Part shown: positions 4,255 through 20,500 of the stretch, piece after piece
Layout of the letters: each line of letters opens with the position of its first letter
Position numbering within the stretch: the first letter of the stretch is position 1
From: Mobula hypostoma
Taxonomy: Eukaryota
Assembly: GCF_963921235.1 (NCBI RefSeq)
Contig: NC_086097.1
Span: forward strand, 3,348,001 to 3,412,000
Direction: 5' to 3'
DNA: 64,000 bases
Translations under genes and position numbers: made by a program
Notes under the pieces: generated by a model
The model's input: only the letters and a program-made list of their open reading frames with translations
Told to the model about the DNA's origin: nothing
Databases searched by the model: none

Positions 4255-5271
4255 GGTACCTCCTGCCTGATGGTAGTGGGTCAAAGTGATGGTTGGACGG
4301 ATGGGAGGGATCATTGACAATTTGCAGTGGTGATCTGTGGCTGACTTTCTTTTCCAAGATAAGGATATAAAAGGAAAAGCTGGTCACTCGTGTGCATTTA
4401 GTATCCCGTCTTTGGTAACCCTCTTTGTTAAATCTATCCAACTGCAGCTTGTGTAGTGAATTCCTATTACTGGTCTGGAATATTGCTAGTGAAACAAAAA
4501 GATACCCATACTTGAAAATGAGCTGCATATCAAGTTGGATTTTGTAAATTTCCTAAGGTTTATTTATACACCACAGCTGTCCTAACCCCATGTGGCCGTC
4601 AGCTCTCATCAATATGAGTTCCTTCATCTGACAGCAAGACAAGCCTCACCTCTGAAACAGCTGTACAAACTTTGACAGTTGACTAAGCTGAGCTCCCCGA
4701 AGAAGATGGCCGTCAATAACATGAACTGTTTTGGAATTTCAAAAACAGCAAAATTTAAAGCATTAGAATCAGTCAATAGAAGTTTTAAGGAATAAACCAA
4801 AACATTGAACATGTTTAAGTAACTAAAACTTTTAACTAAAGACCCAATTCAAACAAATACAAGTTAGCTGATAGCTACTGTCTCTCAGCTGTTCATCTTG
4901 ACTCATGTAAACAGAGTGCCTGTTTCTGCAGCAGGATTAACCCTTTGGAGGTGCTCCACATGGAGATTAATGTTCTGGCTCACGGGCAGTAAATAGTCTT
5001 GTGTCCAGCGTCACTTTATGGACATACAATCAATCGGTGTAGAGAAGCTATCTTATGTATTTATATTTATTGTGTTTTTTATTACTGTGCTCGATATCTT
5101 ATTGTGTTTTTTTTTGAGCTGCATCAGATCCAGAGTAACAATTATTTGTTCTGCTTGACACTTGTGTACTGGAAATGACATTAAACAATGTTGAAACATG
5201 AACATTGAAGAAGCTGAAGATATCAGACTTAGCATGGGAATCTTAAACCTGCTCATGGTCTAAGAAATAAG

Positions 5272-5560
5272 ACATTAGACAGACCATAAGACATGGGGCC
5301 ATTCAGCCCATCAAGTCTGCTCCACCATTCCATCATGGCTGATTTATTATCCTTCCCAACCCCACTCTCCTGCTTTCTCCCTGTGAACCTTCGACATCCT
5401 GACTGATCAAGAACCTATCAACCTCCACTTTAGATACACCCAATGACTTGATCTCCACAGCTATCTGTGACAACACATTGCACAGATTCTCCACCCTCTG
5501 GCTAAAGAGAGCCCTCATCTCCTCTGTTCTAAATGGATGCCCCTCTGTTCTGAGGCTGCA
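5272..5560 (-). mobile_element. CR1 LINE 3' end
   Basis: ALFSQRVENLCN C-terminal motif and AGACCATA-type 3' microsatellite tail. Confidence 0.8.
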
Positions 5561-5859
5561 CTTTTGCACAAATCTGCTGACATTTCCCTGCAAAAAGTGG
5601 CCCATTATAATTTTCATGTCTGATATAGTGCTAGGAAGTTATGAATAACTAGAATTTTAATGCCAATAATAGGCTGCTTTTTTCAGAGTGTTATTACATA
5701 AAATTGTTTGTTCAGGACTGAATTTCATACCCCGATAATTTTTTTTTGACATTGATACCAATGCATTACAACTTACAATGCCTTAAGGCACTCCATTATA
5801 ACAAATGGTTTCATTTGAAGTTCTCTTTCACTTTATTTATCTATCCATCTATCTGTTTA

Positions 5860-6140
5860 TTTATTTAGAGATACAGAATGTAATAGGTCTTTCAGGCTGT
5901 GCCACCAGTGACTCATCTATTTCACCCTAGTCTAATCACAGGACAATTTACAATGACTAATTAACCGACTAACTGATATGTCATTGGACTGTGGGAGGCA
6001 ACCAGAGCACCCAGAGGAAACACACACATTCTACGGGAACGTCATACCGACTCCTTACAGAGGACGTTGGAATTAAACTCCAAACTCTGTTGCCCGAGCT
6101 GTAACAGCATTGCACGAGCAGTAGTGCACCACTGTGGCAC
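5860..6140 (-). mobile_element. SINE with V-domain-like core (HE1/V-SINE-like)
   Basis: Reverse complement of the TTTCCTCTGGGTGCTCTGG..CTCCCACAGTCCAA core; related copies near 12745, 41830, 43100, 45405, 45735, 55760. Confidence 0.65.
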
Positions 6141-6149
6141 CTAATTTGT

Positions 6150-6420
6150 TTGAACTGAATTGAATTTATTTCTTACGTCCTTCACATACACGAGGAGCAA
6201 AAATCTAAATGTGTGATGTACAGTTATAGTAAATTTATAATGAATAGTATGTACAACATGGAAATACAGTTGTGTCAACATGAATTAATCAGTCTGATGG
6301 CCTGGTGGAAGAAGCTGTCTCAGAGCCTGTTCCTGGCTTTTATGGTGTGGTACCGTTTCCCGGATGGTAGCAGCAGGAACAGTTTGTGGTTAGGGTGACT
6401 CGGGTCCCCAATGATCCTTT
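6150..6420 (-). mobile_element. Rex1/Babar LINE 3' end
   Basis: Near-identical to 25175-25445; (CAATT)n-type tail. Confidence 0.75.
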
Positions 6421-6435
6421 TTGAATCATTGAACA

Positions 6436-9400
6436 CAGTGGATTCTGGTTAATTTGGCCATATTAATCAGGGGAGCTGCTAATTTGCGACAACTGTTAAA
6501 GAATAAACATTAATCGATACAAATTACAAGATCCCCTTCATTTATTTGGACACTATGCCACTTAGTTTGGATAAGATAGAACAGTTTCTAACCAGAGTCA
6601 GTCGAGTGCACATCATGTTGTTGTTAGACACTGCACCGTACTTAGAGCGAACAGTTTTTAAATAGCGCCACTGTGTTAAAAAAGCAGTGATTTTTGTCAC
6701 TGATAGTTGGCAAGAAATAAGCAGCAAGGTAATTCAGAACTTGGCTTGCTCACCGTGGTTGCAAGCATTCAGGCTTGAAGTTGCCAGAAATGGCCAGGAG
6801 TGAAAATGACCTTTTCATGACTTCAAGCAGCTTGGAACTATGAAGAGTCATGGAGAAGTACAGCACAGAAACAGGCCCTTTGGCCCATCTAGTCCATGCT
6901 GAAACAATTTAAACTTTCTAATCCCATCAACCTGCACTGGGACCATAGCCCTCCATACCCCTACTATCCAGGAACCTGTCCAAACTTCTCTGAAACATCA
7001 AAATCAAGCTCACATGCACCTTTTGTGCTGGCAGCTCATTCCACACTCTCACAACCCTCTAGGTGAAGAAATTCCCTTAATGTTCCTCTTAAACTTCTCA
7101 TCTTCCACCCTTAACCCAAGACCTCTGGTTGTAGTCCCACCAAACCTTAGTGGAAAAAGCCAGCTTGCCTTTACGCTAATCTCCTCTCAATCTTCTACGT
7201 TCTAAAGAATACAGTCCTGTCCTATTCAACCTTTCCTTACAACGTAGGTCCTCTAGACCTGGCACCATTCTTGTAAACTTTCTCTGTACTCTTTCAACCT
7301 TGTTTGCATCTTTGAAGGCAGGTAACCAAAACTGCACACAATACTCCAAATCAGGCGTCACCCACATTTATACAACTTTAGCATAGCATCCCATTTTCTG
7401 TACTCAGTACATTGATTATGAAGGCCAATGTGCCAATAGCTTTCTTTACAACCCTATCTACCTGTGAGGTCACTTTCAATAAATTATGGACGTGTATTTC
7501 CAGAACCCTTTGTTCTACCACACCCCTCAGTTCCCTACCATTCACTGTGCAAGACCTACCCTGGTTGGTCCTACTGAAGTGCAAAGCCTTGCACTTGTTT
7601 AAATTCCATCTGCCATATTTCAGCCCAATTTTCCAGCTGATGCAGATCCCTCTTCAAACCATGATAAACTTCCTCACTGTCTTCCACACACCCAATCCTG
7701 GTGTCACCTGCAAATTTGCTGATCTGGTTAACCAGATTATTATCCAGATGATTGATATAGATGACAAACAACAAAGGACCCAGTACTGATCCCTGTGGCA
7801 CACCACTAGTCACAGGCCTTCAGTCAGAGAGGCAACCCTCTACCACCACTTTCTAACTTCTTCCACAAAGCCAATGTCTAATTCAATTTACCACTTCATA
7901 ATGAATGCTGAGTGACTGAACCTTCTTGACCAGACTCCCATGTGGGATCTTGTCAAATGTTTTACTGAAGACCACGTGGACAACATCCATTGCCTTGACT
8001 TCATCTTCAAAAAACTCTCTAAGATTTGGTTAGACATGACCCACCATGCACAAAGCCATGATGACTACCCTTACTTATCCAGTCCCTTAGAATACTTTCC
8101 AATAACTTTCCCACAACTGATACCAGGTTTGCTGGCCTATAATTTCCTGGTTTCTGTTTTGAGCCTTTTTTTAAACAGCGGAACAACATTGGCCATCCTC
8201 CAATCCTCTGGTACCTCTCCTGTCACTAAGGATGATTTAAATATTTCTGCCAGGACCCCCGCAGTTTCTGCACTTGCCTCTCATAGGGTCTGAGGGGACA
8301 CCTTGTCAGGCCCTGGGGATTTATCCACCCTGATTTGTCTCAGGGTAGCAAACACCTCCTCCTCTGTTTTCTGTACAGGCTCCATGAAGTTGATGTCACT
8401 TTGCCTCACTTCTATAGGGTCTTTGTCTCCTGAGAAAATTTAGATACAAAAAAATTCAATTAAGGTATCCCCATCTCTTTTGGCTCCACACATGGATTAC
8501 CATTCTGATCTTCCAAAGGACCAATTTTGTCCCTTGCAATCCCTTTGCTCTTAACTTATCTGTAGAATCCCTCAGGATTCTCCTTCACCTCATCTGCTAG
8601 AGCAAATTCTAGCCTTCTTTCACCTTCCTGATTTCTTTCTTAAGTGTTTCCTTGCATGTCTTGTCCTCCATAAGCTCCTCATTTGTTCCTACCTGCTTAT
8701 ACCTGCTATGCACCTCCTTTTGTCTCTGAACCAGGGCCTCAATACCCTTAGAAAAACAAGATTCCCTGTACTTGTTATCTTTACCCTTTGTTCTGACAGG
8801 CACATACAAACTTTGTAGTCCCAAAATTTCATTTTTGAAGGCCTTCCACTTATCAAGTGCACCTTTGCCAGAAAACAGCCTGTCCCAATCCACACTTGAT
8901 ACCATCAAAATTGCCCTTTCTCCAATTTAGAATCTCTACGAGTAGACCAGACCCATCTTTTTGCATATTTACTTTGAAACTAATGGCATTGTGGTCATTG
9001 GATGCAAAGTGTTACCCTAGACAAATTTCTGACACCTGCACTGTCTCATTCCCTAATAGCAGATCCGACATCACACACTCTCTTGTTTGTTTTTTTACAT
9101 ACTGATGAAGGAATTTGACAAACTCTATCCCATCTAGTCCTTCTATAGTATGGGATTTCCAATCAGTATGTGGAAAGTTAAAATCATCCACTCTAACAAC
9201 TTTATGTATCTTGCAACAGTCTGCGATCTCTTTACAGATTTGTTCATCTAAACCCCTGGGACTATGGGTGGTCTGTAATAGTGGCCTATTAATGCGATTA
9301 TACATTTTGTATTTCTCAGTTCAACTCATAATGCCTCACTAGTCAAGTTCTCCAGTCTGTTCTGACGGAGGACTGTCATGTCATTTTCCCTGACTAGTAC

Positions 9401-13010: not shown

Positions 13011-14317
13011 GGTTAAAGAAATTTTCTCAGTGTGTTTGAAAATTGGTGCACTATTAAAATTAAAGTTCAGAATCAGTTGAAATAAAGAGCAATAGACCTG
13101 TAGGCACAGCAGGAGGATATTTACCACTTCATACCAGTATTGCTTCTCAGACTGATCCACTAACTCCCATTTCCAAAACCTTCAAAAGGCAAAGGCCTAG
13201 AAAATTTCAGTTCTCTAATACCCTTTCCTACATCTGGGAGTGGATTAAGTTTCAACATTCAGGATTGCTTAATGTCATTTCCAGCACACAAGTGTAAAGG
13301 AAAACAAAATATTTGTTACTCTAGTTCCAAAGCAGCACAGAAAAAACACAATAAGATACAGAACACAATAATAAAAAATCACAATAAATAAGATAGCTTA
13401 TATATAAAAATATAGATTGATTATACATCCATAAAATGATGCCAGGCACAGGAGTCTGTACATAAAGTGACTCTGACAGGAAATAATAAAGACTTGGTGG
13501 TGGGGGCTTGGAGGGGTGGGTTAGTGAGTTAACGTGTTGATCAGCCTTACTGCTTGGGGAAGGTAATTGTTTTTAAGGCCATAAGACTATAAGATATGGG
13601 AGCAGAATTAGGCCACTTGGCCCATCGAGCCTGCTCCACCATTCAATCATGGGCTGATCCACTTCATCCAGTCATCCCCACACCCCTGACTTCTCCACAT
13701 ACTCTTTGATGCCCTGGTTAATCAAGAGTCAATCTATCTCTGCCTTATATACACCCAATGCCTTGGCCTCCACAGCCGCTCATGGTAACAAATTCCACAG
13801 ATTTACCACACTCTGACAAAAGTAATTTCACCGCGTCTCAGTTCTAGAAGGACATCCTTCAATCCTGAAGTTGTGCCCTCTTGTCCTAGTATCCCCTACC
13901 ATGGGAAATAACTTTGCTGTATCTAATCTGTTCAGGCGTTTTAACATTCAGAGATTCCCCCCTCATTCTCCTGAACTCCACGAATGCAGCCCAAGAGTTG
14001 CCAGATGTTCCTCATACAGTAACCCTTTTTTCCTGGAATCATTCTTGTGAAACTTCTCTGAACCCTCTCCAACGTCAGTATATCCTTTCTAAAATAAGGA
14101 GCCCAAACTGCACACAATACTCTGTGTGGTCTCACGAGTGCCTTATAGAGCCTCAACATCACATTCCTGCTCCTATACTCTATTCCTCTAGAAATGAATG
14201 CAACATTCCATGTGCCTTCTTCACCACCGACTCAATCTGGAGGTTAACCTTTAGGGTATCTTGCACAAGGATTCCTAAGTCCCTTTGGCTCTCTGCATTT
14301 TGAATTCTCTCCCCATC

Positions 14318-14515
14318 TGTTGTGTGTGTGGCCTGGTTACACAACAATGCTATTAATAAAAACGCTGGAAATGGGAGCTAAGGTTCATGGTTCTTTACTG
14401 GCAGAAACCGAACTCGGCACACACGTACAAATCAATACGTGCCTAATAGTGCATTCAATGATGTGTTACTAGAACATAAAGTAGTCCCTTATTAAACTGT
14501 AGGCTATACGGTACA
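14318..14515 (-). repeat. 3' LTR
   Basis: Direct repeat of 18066-18260; reads TGTACCG...CAACA on the minus strand. Confidence 0.95.
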
Positions 14516-14528
14516 CTCCTCCCCTTTT
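14516..14528 (-). promoter_or_regulatory. Polypurine tract
   Basis: AAAAGGGGAGGAG on the minus strand directly before the 3' LTR. Confidence 0.9.
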
Positions 14529-15089
14529 ATTTTAATAGTGTATCAATTGTTTTTTTTTTACTGGGGCACTATGCTAAACAAATATGTTTACCCTTAATGT
14601 ACAAACGTCTACCATTTGTTTACTTAGTAACTTAATAATATCAAATTATAACAAAGTAACATAATAATATCAAATTATAACAAGCCTTTTTTTCACTTTT
14701 GGTCTAAGACCCATTTATAACTCAAGTCTCTGGGGGGGGTGGGTCTTCTCTAGATTGTCTGGCATGAAGCAAATAGGTCTTCACTCTGTTGTCTGGAATA
14801 AATTAAACAATCCACAAATTGGCAGGTTTCAGCCATAAAGAGAAGTCACCTCCATCTTACAAAGATGACGAAAGCAAAGTGAAATCCATGAAAAGGTGAA
14901 TGTTATTCTTAAAAATATGTACAATCATCAAAACTGAGATGGCATTGGAAAGTGTCTTCAAATAGTGTGTTCTTCAGTCTGTCAATAAACTTGTTTGTTT
15001 TAATACAGATTTCCATATAAAAGTCATGAACAGTTGACCTCTGAGCATAGGGAGTTAAGAAGATGTGCGCCTCCAACTTGCTAAGAGTT

Positions 15090-16031
15090 CTATGCAGCAG
15101 ATCGCCTCCGTATAATGAAGACTCCTCTGTGCAGCTGTCCTAGATATACACGCATCTTTGTGCTATCACTTATCTTCCTTACCCATATCTCATTTGTTCC
15201 AACTGAGCTAATTGCACAGCCAATCTTCGTATTCTCATTAGATTCCAAATAGATAGCCTGACCTTTATGATACCACCTCTTATCATAATATAACTTTCCA
15301 TCTTCTATTCGTGCTTCATATCTTTGTGCTGGTGATTCAGCAGGAGTGCTGGGAAGATGTTCAGGAGAAGACAGAGGTGCTGGTCTTTTCGGAGATTTAA
15401 GCTTATTGAGAGTTCACAGATCTTCGATTATCTGTTCATCTGTGAACAAGTAATTTAACTGCGCAGGTGCAGGTTTTTGTCTTTTGTCTGTAATTGGAAC
15501 AGGGTCATTAGGTCTCCTCCTTAGTTTCTTAGTCATTATTGGCTTTACCTCCATAGGATCTCCTGTGAATTCCATTGTTAGCCTCTCATTCTCAATCATC
15601 TGTTTGTTTTCTTCTAACTCAATCTTTTTATCTTCCTTTTAAATTCCATCACTGCTGCTTTCTTCTCTTTAATATAATTCCTTTCCACTTGTTCTGTCTC
15701 CAGTTGCAGAAAAAAACTCTGCATTTTGTATTCTTTCCTTGTATTGTTGATCTGGTTTCTTCATCCTTTTCTGATACTCCTGCAAAGTGCCTTCCTGTAT
15801 CTGCTGTAGCTGTATTTTGAGAGATGTCAATTTCTCCTGGTACATCTGCTCTTTTACTTCCAGGTAGTCTTCATCATCCTGCTTATTGGCAATATCTGTC
15901 TCCCTTGCATCCTCTGTATCTTCATCCGAGTCGCAGCCACGGATACTGCGTTCATCCTCATCGTTGACGCTGTCTAGCTCCTCCTCATCATTGTAATAGT
16001 CGACAGTGGGTGAGAGAAGAGCTGTGGACAT
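15090..16031 (-). pseudogene. SUDS3: Processed (intronless) retrocopy of SUDS3, Sin3/HDAC corepressor component SDS3; frameshifted, with a premature stop
   Basis: [21 protein letters not shown]...DEDTEDA...[77 protein letters not shown]...RRRSAA* are collinear with vertebrate SUDS3 as I recall it, from start to stop. Confidence 0.95.
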
Positions 16032-17233
16032 CTTCCCCGCTGAGCTGCCCTCCTTTGTTAACACATCTAGTGCCTTGATGGTGTGCCAATCCAACTGGAT
16101 TTTCCTGAGCCATTCACGTCCCAGCAACGGTGGTCCTCTGTTTTTCAGTACGTAGAGGTTCAGCTGCTGTGTTTTGTCTCCGTAGGTCACTGTCACTTTA
16201 ATTTTACCTTTGGGATGCACTTTCTGTCCTGTGTAAGTCTTTAGCAGTAGTTTAGTTCGTTTCAGAGGTATGTGAGAAAACAGTTGTTTGTAGTCATGTA
16301 CAGAGATCACTGTTAAAGCTGAGCCTGTATCCAACTCCATTTTAAGTCTCACACCTGCCACTTATGGAGTGATCCTTATTACCCTTCGATCATCTGTCTC
16401 TTTCACGCTGTGAAGTTGCAGACAAGACAATTTACTTTCATCTGAGTCGTTTTCATCAGAACTGCTTTCTCCCATTTTGTGTACATTGTTGTGTTTTCCT
16501 TTCTGGGGTTTCTTGTTTCTCTGTATTTTGTCCTTTTTCTGCTGTTTACTAGCTTTGCATACTCTGCCAGTGTGGCCCTGTTTGCCACAGTTTCTGCATT
16601 CTTTGTCTTTAAACCAACAGTCACCAGGGTGATGTGACCTGTTCTCACAACAGTAACATTTCTTCCCTTCATTTCTGTTCAGTGACATTTTATACATAGC
16701 ATATTCCAGAGATTCTTGTTGTATCTCCGAAGCACCTTGTGCCACTGTTTCTAATGATATTGCAATGTTCAGTGCTTTCTCGAATGTAAGGTCTCGTTCA
16801 CACAGAAGCTTCTTCTGTGTGGCTTCACAGTGCATGTCACACACTAACCTGTCCCTCAATGTGTCCGATAGACCAGCTCCAAATTGACAATGTTCTGATC
16901 ATTTGTGCAATTCAGCACAATATTCAGAAATGCTTTCGTTTTTGTTCTGATTCCGTTTGTGAAATTTAAATCTTTCAGCTATTCAGTGGTTTGGGGTTTA
17001 AATACTGTTGGAGAGAGTCTACTATTTGCTTGGACATTTTGTCAGTGGTTTTCAGTGGTTAACAAGCTCCGTAGTAGCCGGTATGTTTTTGCTTGCATAA
17101 TACTGAGTAAGACGCTGGCTTTCTTTTCATCATTAACACCGTTAGCCTCACAATATAATTCCACTTTTTCAATGTAAGTTACCCAGTTTTCAATGCTACT
17201 ATCAAATGCTGTAATGGTTCCAAATATCGCCAT
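16032..17233 (-). pseudogene. Gypsy gag and aspartic protease, disrupted
   Basis: MAIFGTITAFD...NW..YIEK; RDRLVC; CCHC knuckles CYCCENRSHHPGDC and [22 protein letters not shown]...LLGREWL; in-frame stop at 16362-16364 and indels near 17040. Confidence 0.92.
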
Positions 17234-17422
17234 CCTTGTTATGTTAATTTAGCCCCGTTTTTCCCCGTTTTCTTTTCAGCTAGCTCCTTGCAGTCACAGC
17301 ATGTTCCACTTGACTCACGTGTCATTTTTGCTAGCGCAATGAGCGCACTCCGTCTAGATGCGTGTGTTGCTCCTTTTCATCTCCCTTCTCTCTCTTCTCC
17401 TCTGAGTGACATTATTAACTAA

Positions 17423-18006
17423 CACAAAATAATCTGCAGATGCTGGGGTCAAAGCAACACTCACAACACGCTGGAGGAACTCAGCAGGTCGGGCAGCATC
17501 AGTGGAAATGATCAGTCAATGTTAACTCAGGTTGGATCTACTGCCATGATGAGGCTAAACTCAGGTTGGAGGAGCAACACCTCATATACTGTCTGGGTAG
17601 TCTCCAGCCCCTTGGTACGAACATAGAATTCTCCAACTTCCAGTAATTCCCTCCCCCTCCCTTCCCCTATCCCTATGTCACTCTGCCCCCTCCCCCAGCT
17701 GCCTATCACCTCTCTCATGGTTCCGCCTCCTTCTACTACCCATTGTGTTTTCCCCTATTCCTTCTTCACCTTTCCTGCCTATCACCTCCCTGCCTCCCCT
17801 CCCCCACCCCTTGATCTTTCCCCTTACTGGTTTTTCACCTGGAACCTACCAGCCTTCTCCTTCCCACCCTCCCCCCACCTTCCTTATAGGGCCTCTGCCC
17901 CTTCCCTCTACAGTCCTGACGATGGGTTCCGGCCCGAAACGTTGACTGTTCATTTCCATGGATGCTGCCCGACCTGCTGAGTTCCTCCAGCGTGTTGTAA
18001 GTGTCG
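17423..18006 (+). mobile_element. Truncated Penelope-like insertion with inverted termini in the Gypsy leader
   Basis: Inverted arms about 17463-17523 and 17939-17998; TSD TTATTAACTAA at 17412-17422 and 18007-18017. Confidence 0.88.
17910..17949 (+). ncRNA. Minimal type I hammerhead ribozyme motif (Penelope pLTR)
   Basis: ACAGTC-CTGACGA-T-GGGT-TCCG-GCCC-GAAAC-GTT-GACTGT: 6-bp stem I, conserved core, 4-bp stem II, palindromic loop-less stem III, NUH site. Confidence 0.8.
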
Positions 18007-18050
18007 TTATTAACTAAAACACGGCATTCCGATAAGATGTAGGTTCATAA

Positions 18051-18062
18051 TTCTCGACGCCA
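18051..18062 (-). promoter_or_regulatory. Primer-binding site
   Basis: TGGCGTCGAGAA on the minus strand, 3 nt downstream of the 5' LTR. Confidence 0.8.
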
Positions 18063-18065
18063 ATT

Positions 18066-18260
18066 TATTGTGAATGTGGCCTGGTTACACAATGCTATAA
18101 ATAAAACTGTTGGAGCCAGGAGCTAAGGTTCATTGTTCTTTACTGGCAGAAACTGAACTCGGCACACACGTACAGATCAATACGCGCCTAATAGCACATT
18201 CAATGACGTGTTACTAAAACATAAAGTAATCCCTTATTATACTGTAGGCAAAACGGTACA
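18066..18260 (-). repeat. 5' LTR
   Basis: Direct repeat of 14318-14515. Confidence 0.95.
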
Positions 18261-19232
18261 CCATCTAAATAATAGTCTGCCCATTTATTTCTTCCACCAA
18301 AGTGCATGACCATACACTTTCCAACATTGTATTTCATTTGCCACTTCGTTGCCCATTTCCCCTAAACTATCTAAGTCTCTCTGCAGGCTCTCTGTTTCCT
18401 GAACACAGCCTGCTCCTCCACCTGTCTTTGTATCATCGGCAAATTTAGCCACAAATCCATTAATACTGTAGTCCAAATCATTGACATACATCGTAAAAAG
18501 CAGTGGTCCCAACTCTGACCCCTGTGGAACTCCACTGGTAACTGGCAGCCAACCAGAATATGATTCCTTTATTCCCACTCTCTGTTTTCTGCTGACCAGA
18601 CAATGCTCCACCCATGCTAGTAACTTCCCTGAAATTCCATGGGCTCTTATCTTGCTAAGCAGCTTCATGTGTGGCACCTTGTCAAAGGCCTTCTGAAAAT
18701 CCAAGTACACCACATCCACTGCATCTCCTTTGTCTACCCTGCTTGTAATTTCCTCAAAAAATTGCAGTAGATTAGCCAAGCAGGATTTTCCTTTCAGGAA
18801 ACCATGCTGGCTTTGTCCTATCTTGTCATATGCCTCCAGGTACTCTGTAATCTCATCCATAACAATCTATTCCAACAATTTCTCAACCACTGATGTCAGG
18901 CTAACAGGTTTATAGTTTCATTTCTGCAGCCTGCCACCCTTCTTAAATAGTGGGGTAACATTTGCAATTTTCCAGTCATCCGGTACAATGCCAGAATCCA
19001 TCGATTCTTGAAAGATCATCATTAATGCCTTCGCAATCTCTGCAGCTACTTCCTTCAAAACCCAAGGGTGCATTCCATCAGGTCCAGGAGATTTATCCAC
19101 CCTCAGACCATTAAGCTTCCTGAGCACCTTCTCAGTCGTAATTTTCACTGCACAAATTTCACTTCCCTGACACTCTTGAATATCTGGTATACTGCAGATG
19201 TCTTCCACTGTGAAGACTGATGCAAAATAATC

Positions 19233-20500
19233 CTGCACAAGGACTCCCGAGCCTCCTTTCACCTTAGATTTTTGAATTTTCTCTCCATTTAGCAAATAAT
19301 CAACCCTTTCATTTCTTCTACCAAAGTGCATGACCATACACCTCCCAACACTACATTCCATCTGCCACTTATTTACTCATTCCTTTAATCTATCCAAGTC
19401 CTCTACACTTCCTCAAAACTACCTGTCCCTCTACATATCTTTACATTATCTGCAAACATGGCCACAAAGCTATTATTTCTGCCATCCAAGTCATTGACAT
19501 ATAATGTAAAGAAAGCGGTTGCGACACAGACCCCTGTGGAACACCACTAGTCACCGGCCAGCAGCCAACCAGAAAAGGCTCCCTTTATTCCCAGTCTTTG
19601 CCTCCTGCCGATCAGGCACTGCTTTATTCATGCTAGAATCTTTCCTGTAATACCATGAGCTCGTAGCTTGTTAAGCAGCCTCATGTGTGGCACCTTGTCA
19701 AAGGCCTTCTGAAAATCCAAGCACACAACATCAACTGATTCTCTTTTGTCTATCCTGCTTGTTATTTCTTCAGAGAATTCCAACAGAATTGTCAGGCAAG
19801 ATTTTCCCTTGAGGAAACTAAGCTGAATATGGCCTATTTTATCATGTATCTCCAAGTACCATGAAACCACACCCTCAAATCCAATATCTTCCCAACCACT
19901 GAGGTCAGACTAACTGGCCTGTAATTTCCTTTCTTCTGCCTCTCTCTCTTCTTGAAGAGTGGAGTTATATTTGCAATTTTCCATTCCACTGGAACCATGC
20001 CAGAATCAATTGATTCTTCAAAGATCATTACTGTTGACTCCACAATCACTTCAGCCACCTCTTCCAGAACCCTCGGGCGTACTCCATCTGGTTCAGCTGA
20101 CTTATCTGCTGTCAGACCTTCCAGTTTCCCAAGAACTGTTTTCTCTAGTAATGGCAACTTCACACACCTCTGCCCTTGACACACTCAAACTTTCTGCACA
20201 CTACTACTGACTTCCACAGTGAAGACTGAGGCAAATACTTATTCAGTTCATCTGTCATTTCCTTGTCCCCCATTACTACGTCCCTAGTATCATTTTCCAA
20301 TGGTCCTATATCCACCCTTGCCTCTCTTTTACACTTTATATATCTGAAGAAACTCTTGTTATCCTCTTTAATATTATTGGCCAGATTACTTTCATTTTCT
20401 AACTTTTCATTAGTGACTTTAAAAGCTTTCCAATCCTCTACCTTCCCAGTAACGTTTGCTCTACAATATGCTCTCTCTTTGGTTTTAATGTTGGCTTTTG
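19233..20500 (-). mobile_element. Degenerate CR1 ORF2 fragment
   Basis: GNYRPVSLTSVVGK, LDFQKAFDKVPH. Confidence 0.85.

Follow-up and report, generated by a model that had tools for sequence, protein, structure and literature searches.

Introduction

Long terminal repeat (LTR) elements are known to make retrocopies of host genes by template switching in animals, and a double template switch has been described for LTR-mediated retroposition (Tan et al. 2016, Genome Res, PMC5131818). In the cases described there, single or few copies were found in which an intronless host complementary DNA (cDNA) replaces part of the internal open reading frame (ORF) between two LTRs. The two fusion points show microsimilarity, and the cDNA is truncated at its 3' end and has no poly(A) tail; no cartilaginous fish is among the species given there. 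Here, we describe an element that shares all of these features, on the minus strand at 14318-18260 of a 64,000-nucleotide (nt) stretch of contig NC_086097.1 of the ray Mobula hypostoma (the window), in which the captured cDNA derives from the host gene SUDS3. We estimate, at roughly 85%, that the window contains a dead member of a non-autonomous Ty3/Gypsy family in which spliced SUDS3 mRNA took the place of the reverse transcriptase (RT), RNase H and integrase through a double template switch. Unlike the published cases, this element is present in at least 313 copies, carries a complete coding sequence fused in frame to Gag-protease, and has a second 3' join that would stem from later recombination with its partner.

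Other systems offer partial parallels. Acutely transforming retroviruses make Gag-onc fusions, carry spliced host cDNA in place of replication genes, depend on a helper, and owe their 3' join to illegitimate recombination during reverse transcription. The SUDS3 element likewise has an in-frame Gag fusion of a spliced host cDNA where the replication genes should be; unlike these viruses, it is an env-less Gypsy retrotransposon, transmitted in the germ line, fixed and decayed, and its cargo is a co-repressor subunit with no sign of a gained function. No infectious, env-bearing helper was seen, and the Pfam families of the nearest relatives found, which are single-ORF Gypsy elements of ~1,310 amino acids on contigs of ~4.2-4.6 kb, include no env domain. 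Among LTR elements with cellular sequence, Bs1 of maize holds pieces of three genes and is of low copy number, and FAM8A1 of humans is a single locus. The SUDS3 element resembles Bs1 and HERV-K/FAM8A1, both cited in PMC5131818 as having captured cellular gene sequence, and differs from them in being a family of hundreds with a whole coding sequence. Like established non-autonomous LTR families, it shares its ends with a partner, has no RT or integrase of its own, and lies at many sites with duplications. ETn, for instance, is moved by its partner MusD. MaLR and MERVL (named in PMC5131818) form a similar pair, with LTRs, primer-binding site (PBS) and polypurine tract shared with the partner, no RT or integrase, and a high copy number. 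Unlike in either pair, the internal part of the SUDS3 element is an identifiable host mRNA whose parent gene is still in the genome.

Structure of the element

Read along the minus strand, the element consists of an LTR, a PBS-like site, gag, protease, an intronless SUDS3 cDNA, a polypurine tract and a second LTR; the boundaries, strand and order of parts proposed in an earlier reading of the sequence (the original prediction) were all found in place. The 5' LTR (18066..18260; 195 nt, TG..CA) and the 3' LTR (14318..14515; 198 nt, TG..CA) differ at 23 of 196 aligned bases and appear as blocks of 88% and 85% in the repeat comparison. Both are bordered by GATGG, read at 18261..18265 on the 5' side and identical at 14313..14317 on the 3' side, which is the minus-strand form of the CCATC target-site duplication described originally. 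The leader (17234..18065) contains the PBS-like TGGCGTCGAG at 18062-18053, its TGGCG situated 3 nt past the 5' LTR. The gag gene, with a CCHC zinc knuckle, extends from its ATG at 17233 to 16362 and is broken in this copy. It is followed by the aspartic protease with the start of the protease-RT linker (16051..16361; Pfam stretch ~16104-16355), which matches PF13975 (E 1.7e-5) and RVP (E 4e-3) below the curated cut-offs. When translated with an X at its one stop, gag-protease shares 61% identity, across its full 279 residues, with Gypsy polyproteins of ~1,310 amino acids, and these relatives carry RT, RNase H and integrase.

What follows the protease in the window copy? The protease ORF continues without a stop into SUDS3, forming one 230-amino-acid frame in which Pfam places a gag-type aspartic protease at residues 3-86 and Sds3 at 164-215. 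After the 7-nt GGGCAGC (16044..16050) come 12 nt of SUDS3 5' untranslated region (UTR) at 16032..16043, which match parental exon 1 (locus L066) and not the autonomous element, and then the intronless coding sequence (15090..16031; ATG at 16031, stop at 15092-15090). The latter was identified by Pfam Sds3 (E 1.1e-5) and by the parental exons, and annotated ray SDS3 shares 91% identity with the SUDS3 part. It is followed by the first 338 nt only of the SUDS3 3'UTR (14752..15089), which had been put at about 340 bp of presumed 3'UTR and indeed matches the last exon of the parent on contig C78 with 95% identity. Gypsy sequence resumes with the last codons of the pol ORF (14715..14751; ..RRPPQRLEL, stop), as shown by alignment with two autonomous copies and with the C-terminal end of the related polyprotein P0002, and the 3' join, AGA at 14749-14751, lies within these codons. 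Between the two LTRs of one element, cDNA takes the place of everything in pol that would extend from the protease-RT linker as far as the last codons. In agreement with the original prediction, neither the ORF list nor Pfam revealed an RT, RNase H or integrase core between the LTRs, and only the last pol codons remain. The element's own 3' untranslated stretch (14529..14714), common to the autonomous copies, leads to the polypurine tract AAAAGGGGAGGAG (14516..14528), which adjoins the 3' LTR and shows few changes in the 20 copies aligned there.

The element sits in a CR1-type long interspersed nuclear element (LINE), whose reverse transcriptase ORF is found at 18285..18866 (PF00078, RVT_1, E 2e-19). 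In a paralogous CR1 copy in locus L021, the two flanks lie side by side (7426-7544 and 7541-7658), so that the host CR1 does rejoin cleanly, as had been claimed.

The parent gene and intron loss

The parent of the cDNA is an intron-bearing SUDS3 gene spanning ~60 kb on contig C78. Human SUDS3 lies near SRRM4, and a search for the SRRM_C domain gave two genome matches, one of them at C78:7.37 Mb. One of the genome matches to the 3' end of SUDS3 is at C78:8.38 Mb; this match aligns only to window 15190-14749, at 95%. A polypyrimidine tract and AG lead into the last exon there, whose 3'UTR continues for more than 1 kb, unrelated to the element past 14749. The letters of the parental 5'UTR were supplied by contigs of four public runs, of unrecorded kind, aligned to the window; the contigs are collinear with window 14765-16050 except for 24 nt and diverge at both ends. 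These 5'UTR letters, G-rich like the Gypsy linker, have a single genome match, at C78:8,439,659. Exon 1 reads ..GGGCAGCTCGGCGGGGAAG ATG.. and ends after 112 coding nt in GATGAAG, with GTAACT following across the boundary. A further exon, at C78:8,400,1xx, is bounded by ..ttgcag and gtgtgt.

Four parental introns are precisely missing from the element, their positions closed exactly at window 15919/15920, 15697/15698, 15559/15560 and 15188/15189. The cDNA had been described as lacking introns, with an intronless parent named as the alternative. The multi-exon gene on C78, whose exon boundaries can be read directly, upholds the former and removes the latter.

The autonomous partner and the joins

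P0002, a related polyprotein of 1,318 amino acids, has many copies in the genome that match over residues 1-1318, all with stops. Both P0002 and P0003 carry RVT_1, RT_RNaseH, Integrase_H2C2 and rve; the integrase motifs follow RT in P0002, and the Ty3/Gypsy (Metaviridae) pol order protease-RT-RNase H-integrase holds in the partner's relatives. Among 20 autonomous protease-RT regions, 17 match the window protease with 89-93% DNA identity, and all 17 diverge from the chimera at 16044-16046, where they continue AAGGCTACATCTGAG.. toward RT. Furthermore, two full autonomous copies share with the chimera the LTRs (~80-84% identity), the leader, the start of gag and the 3' end. A 28-mer across the partner's protease-RT link had 202 genome matches, which puts the partner at 202 copies or more; these counts, and those below, are lower bounds, being based on 28- and 41-mers in which up to 3 mismatches were allowed. 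The original prediction had looked to an autonomous Gypsy relative for locating the switch points, and with this partner, both the 5' and the 3' points could be mapped together with their microhomology.

The 5' join reads ..GGAGGGCAGC followed directly by TCGGCGGGGAAGATG, 12 nt before the SUDS3 ATG, and the Gypsy linker shares GGGCAGC there with the parental 5'UTR. The 3' join exists in two forms. Form A, which is found in the window and in 6 of 20 other copies (115 genome matches), connects 3'UTR ..CAATCT to pol AGAGAAGACC.. with a GA/AGA overlap of 2-3 nt. Form B, found in 12 of the 20, connects 3'UTR ..TTGACAGAC to pol GTTACCCGGAG.., with CAGAC (5 nt) common to both. The last pol codons are retained in both forms, neither of which has a poly(A) tail at its join. 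Compared with form A, form B includes 20 additional nt of pol, and its 3'UTR portion is shorter by 227 nt. Neither form is therefore a deletion of the other; in particular, B as a simple deletion of A is excluded by the 20 nt of pol that A lacks.

The two forms are interleaved in a tree built from 21 copies, which is star-like and gives no order of appearance; the closest pair (3.9%) consists of one B and one A copy. Per site, gag is about twice as variable as SUDS3 among the copies (~8% versus ~4% minor letters in L021-L040). This excess goes beyond post-insertion decay alone, and may stem from recombination with diverse partner copies. The interleaved forms and the variability of gag together suggest that co-packaged RNAs may have recombined repeatedly.

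A multicopy family

Searching the genome with the SUDS3 coding sequence gave 475 first-look candidates, and all 40 of the places scored match at 92-100% along almost the entire 942 nt. The order gag-protease-SUDS3-3' LTR was present in 19 of 19 other loci cut out, and the protease-SUDS3 join is identical in 21 of 21 sequences (the window and 20 copies fetched with wider flanks). A 28-mer across this join matched the genome 313 times, compared with 0 for the reversed control, and a 41-mer at the SUDS3 ATG matched 286 times. In 15 elements both ends could be read; the 5-bp duplication is perfect in nine, has 4/5 bases in two and is unclear in four, and the flanks differ in all 15. The family copies are separate integrations, because they have different flanks and their own 5-bp duplications.

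These results indicate that the window copy descends from a single founding chimera, which later proliferated as a non-autonomous element. The original prediction was right about the chimera itself; its template switch at the window locus has to be given up, since at least 313 copies share the join at different sites. It had also foreseen further LTR-gag-protease-SUDS3-LTR copies with other duplications, and these exist. Misassembly, raised there as an alternative, fails on the same join matches and differing duplications.

The copies vary in other ways as well. Their LTRs come in two lengths, ~198 and ~222-224 nt (L023, L027, L033, L036, L040 and others), sometimes unequal within one copy. 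Most copies have a 29-nt tandem duplication in the 3' untranslated stretch of the element (window 14626-14683, from the repeat search), where the unit is single in L021, L023 and L034; at this place, the two autonomous copies have different AT-rich repeats.

Age and decay

The LTR pairs of 13 copies differ by 7-13% (median 10%), the copies differ pairwise by ~7% in the protease-SUDS3 part, and many of the changes among them are CpG decay. The whole Gag-protease-SUDS3 frame is intact in none of 21 copies, and the SUDS3 frame is open in two and broken in 19. The divergence of LTRs and copies, the CpG decay and the broken frames show that the burst is old, probably going back tens of millions of years.

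In the window copy, the SUDS3 coding sequence is disrupted by +1 and +5 frameshifting insertions and one in-frame TGA. A TAA at 16361-16359, shared among the copies only with L021, separates gag from protease, and gag has additional breaks. Nested in the leader of this copy only is an element of ~550 bp at 17457-18004 with 67-nt inverted ends (93% complementary). A 22-nt near-repeat (17405-17426 and 18000-18021) lies on both of its sides, and pieces of it recur in many other fetched loci, making it an abundant repeat of this genome. Just upstream of the host CR1, the ORF list shows a second open stretch resembling a LINE reverse transcriptase (18918-19376).

Origin of the chimera

How could a spliced host mRNA have come to replace most of pol? 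We propose that, in a virus-like particle, a reverse transcriptase copying Gypsy RNA from its 3' end would have switched into a co-packaged SUDS3 mRNA within the 3'UTR, copied this mRNA up to 12 nt above the ATG, and switched back to Gypsy RNA just after the protease, at the shared GGGCAGC. The product would have retained the LTRs, PBS, leader, gag, protease, last pol codons and polypurine tract, with a single Gag-protease-SUDS3 frame. Enzymes of the autonomous partner would have copied and integrated it until it reached the present copy number; recombination with the partner during this spread may have given rise to the second 3' join, and decay would have come later. We infer mobilisation in trans because the ends of the element are shared with the partner and its own enzymes are missing; template switching inside particles and SUDS3 as passive cargo are inferred as well. 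The microhomologies of 7 nt at the 5' join, 5 nt at 3' form B and 2-3 nt at 3' form A are as template switching predicts.

Several points weigh against this scenario. Template switching is read from the joins, and microhomology would fit end joining at the DNA level too. The overlap at form A is short, and the interpretation of that form depends on one base, the parent today having CTGGA and the copies CTAGA. The count for form B, up to 184 genome matches, includes some autonomous copies (at least 11 among 100 matches listed), and full reading was limited to 21 of more than 300 copies.

A different history, which we consider unlikely, is classical transduction, in which a Gypsy element lay upstream of or in SUDS3 and a deletion or read-through would have linked protease to the 5'UTR at the level of DNA or of a transcript, with splicing afterwards and only the 3' join made by template switching. 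This is the textbook route of retroviral oncogene capture (the Swain and Coffin model, named in PMC5131818), and the data here cannot separate an RNA-level from a DNA-level 5' join. On the other hand, the 7 nt at that join agree with the median of 6 bp at switch points reported in PMC5131818, and blastn against L066 found no Gypsy in the 140 nt upstream of the parental 5'UTR match, a very short stretch. It is far less probable still that CR1 made a processed SUDS3 pseudogene inside a Gypsy element, which then lost pol by deletion and multiplied. CR1-type LINEs are abundant here, and there are short A-runs in the 3' part of the element (14550-14560 and 14685-14692); these, however, belong to sequence common to the autonomous copies and lie away from the end of the cDNA. 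None of the marks of a LINE processed pseudogene, namely a 3' end at the polyadenylation site, an A-tail and a flanking duplication, is present; the cDNA stops 338 nt into the 3'UTR, and pol sequence with microhomology abuts both of its ends. Moreover, a single insertion followed by deletion cannot give form B, with its longer pol and shorter 3'UTR, and this route is contradicted already. The element instead has the intron loss, internal replacement, microsimilarity and absence of poly(A) and LINE-type duplication of an LTR-mediated retrocopy. The original prediction had favoured such an LTR-mediated over a LINE-mediated route, and the microhomology at the joins, the missing poly(A) and a partner with the same LTRs support it. 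It had also reported no poly(A) and no separate target-site duplication for the cDNA; consistent with this, the 3' join falls inside a parental 3'UTR that runs on for more than 1 kb, and the 5' join abuts a pol codon.

Could the cargo have been useful to the element? Vertebrate SUDS3 is a Sin3/HDAC co-repressor subunit, and a Gag-protease-SDS3 fusion might have raised the success of the element, e.g., by interfering with Sin3/HDAC silencing. The common form does keep the whole SUDS3 coding sequence in frame with Gag-protease, all five of the fixed changes that set the copies apart from the parent across 211 coding nt are synonymous, and the chimeric join outnumbers the partner join (313 versus 202 matches). 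The synonymous bias, however, can be explained wholly by selection on the parent, and the differences among copies are nearly even by codon position (non-CpG 49/46/67 and 57/48/58). The two open SUDS3 frames among 21 copies are about the chance level. A sub-lineage with the gag/protease stop still inserted at two sites (the window and L021), and another (L024, L036) spread two SUDS3 amino-acid changes. We thus regard a useful cargo as very doubtful. It would be a long shot that the founder's in-frame polyprotein engaged or titrated the Sin3/HDAC co-repressor, escaped silencing and thereby out-multiplied its partner (at least 313 versus at least 202 join matches); if it did, a transposon would have turned a stolen host repressor subunit against host repression.

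A 24-nt deletion marks the family

All copies, including that of the window, are without 24 nt (encoding KENLIAEL) that the parent has. In the genome, these 24 nt occur once, in the parent, where they lie inside an exon between TGAGTT repeats. The loss is a slippage deletion early in the family and not a splice form; an alternative splice donor is excluded by this position within the exon. Annotated SDS3-like proteins of M. hypostoma, M. birostris and Hypanus sabinus (P0087, P0089-P0095, P0166, P0203) also have no KENLIAEL where they reach the site, and P0203, from M. birostris, contains the protease-SUDS3 join itself, read with a frameshift. Judging from these sequences, the annotated "SDS3-like" proteins of the three rays look like transposon cargo ORFs rather than host paralogues.

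Among the public-run contigs, contig 22 of run X2 (window 15492-16117) holds the parent-only 24 nt, yet fits 74 nt into the protease. Because the 24-mer is found only once in the genome, in the parent, we take this contig for an assembly join or for an older state of the chimera from another species. In run X1, the summed contig depth over window 15652-15907 is 4,600-6,400, versus 33 for the parental 3'UTR contig, values that are uninformative on expression or copy number as the kind of run is unrecorded.

Implications for retrocopy censuses

A literature search for an LTR element carrying SUDS3 found none described, although preprint supplements may hold SUDS3 counts per species. The mechanism itself is already published; what is unusual here is the copy number, the in-frame Gag-protease-SUDS3 design, the fully mapped joins and the tie to a recent retrocopy census. 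That census, a 2026 preprint on 244 vertebrate genomes (10.64898/2026.06.26.734816), gives SUDS3, MIPOL1, SDF2L1, SLU7 and ZNF276 as the five top parents of retrocopies in cartilaginous fishes. In its accessible part, such lists are discussed in terms of germline expression and selective filtering, and a transposon-cargo explanation is absent from the treatment of SUDS3 (10.64898/2026.06.26.734816). In the genome of M. hypostoma, the excess of SUDS3 retrocopies is the outcome of one capture followed by transposon amplification, and the same history probably accounts for the high ranking of SUDS3 in cartilaginous fishes. Retrocopy censuses therefore need to separate cargo copies, and the retrocopies of MIPOL1, SDF2L1, SLU7 and ZNF276 merit the same scrutiny.

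For the 5' join, the two 3' joins and the 24-nt slippage alike, a living parent and a partner are available for comparison, and together they document natural template switching by reverse transcriptase in a vertebrate with unusual completeness. Furthermore, the cargo is a subunit of a histone deacetylase complex that silences chromatin, and the idea that it may have been functional deserves testing.

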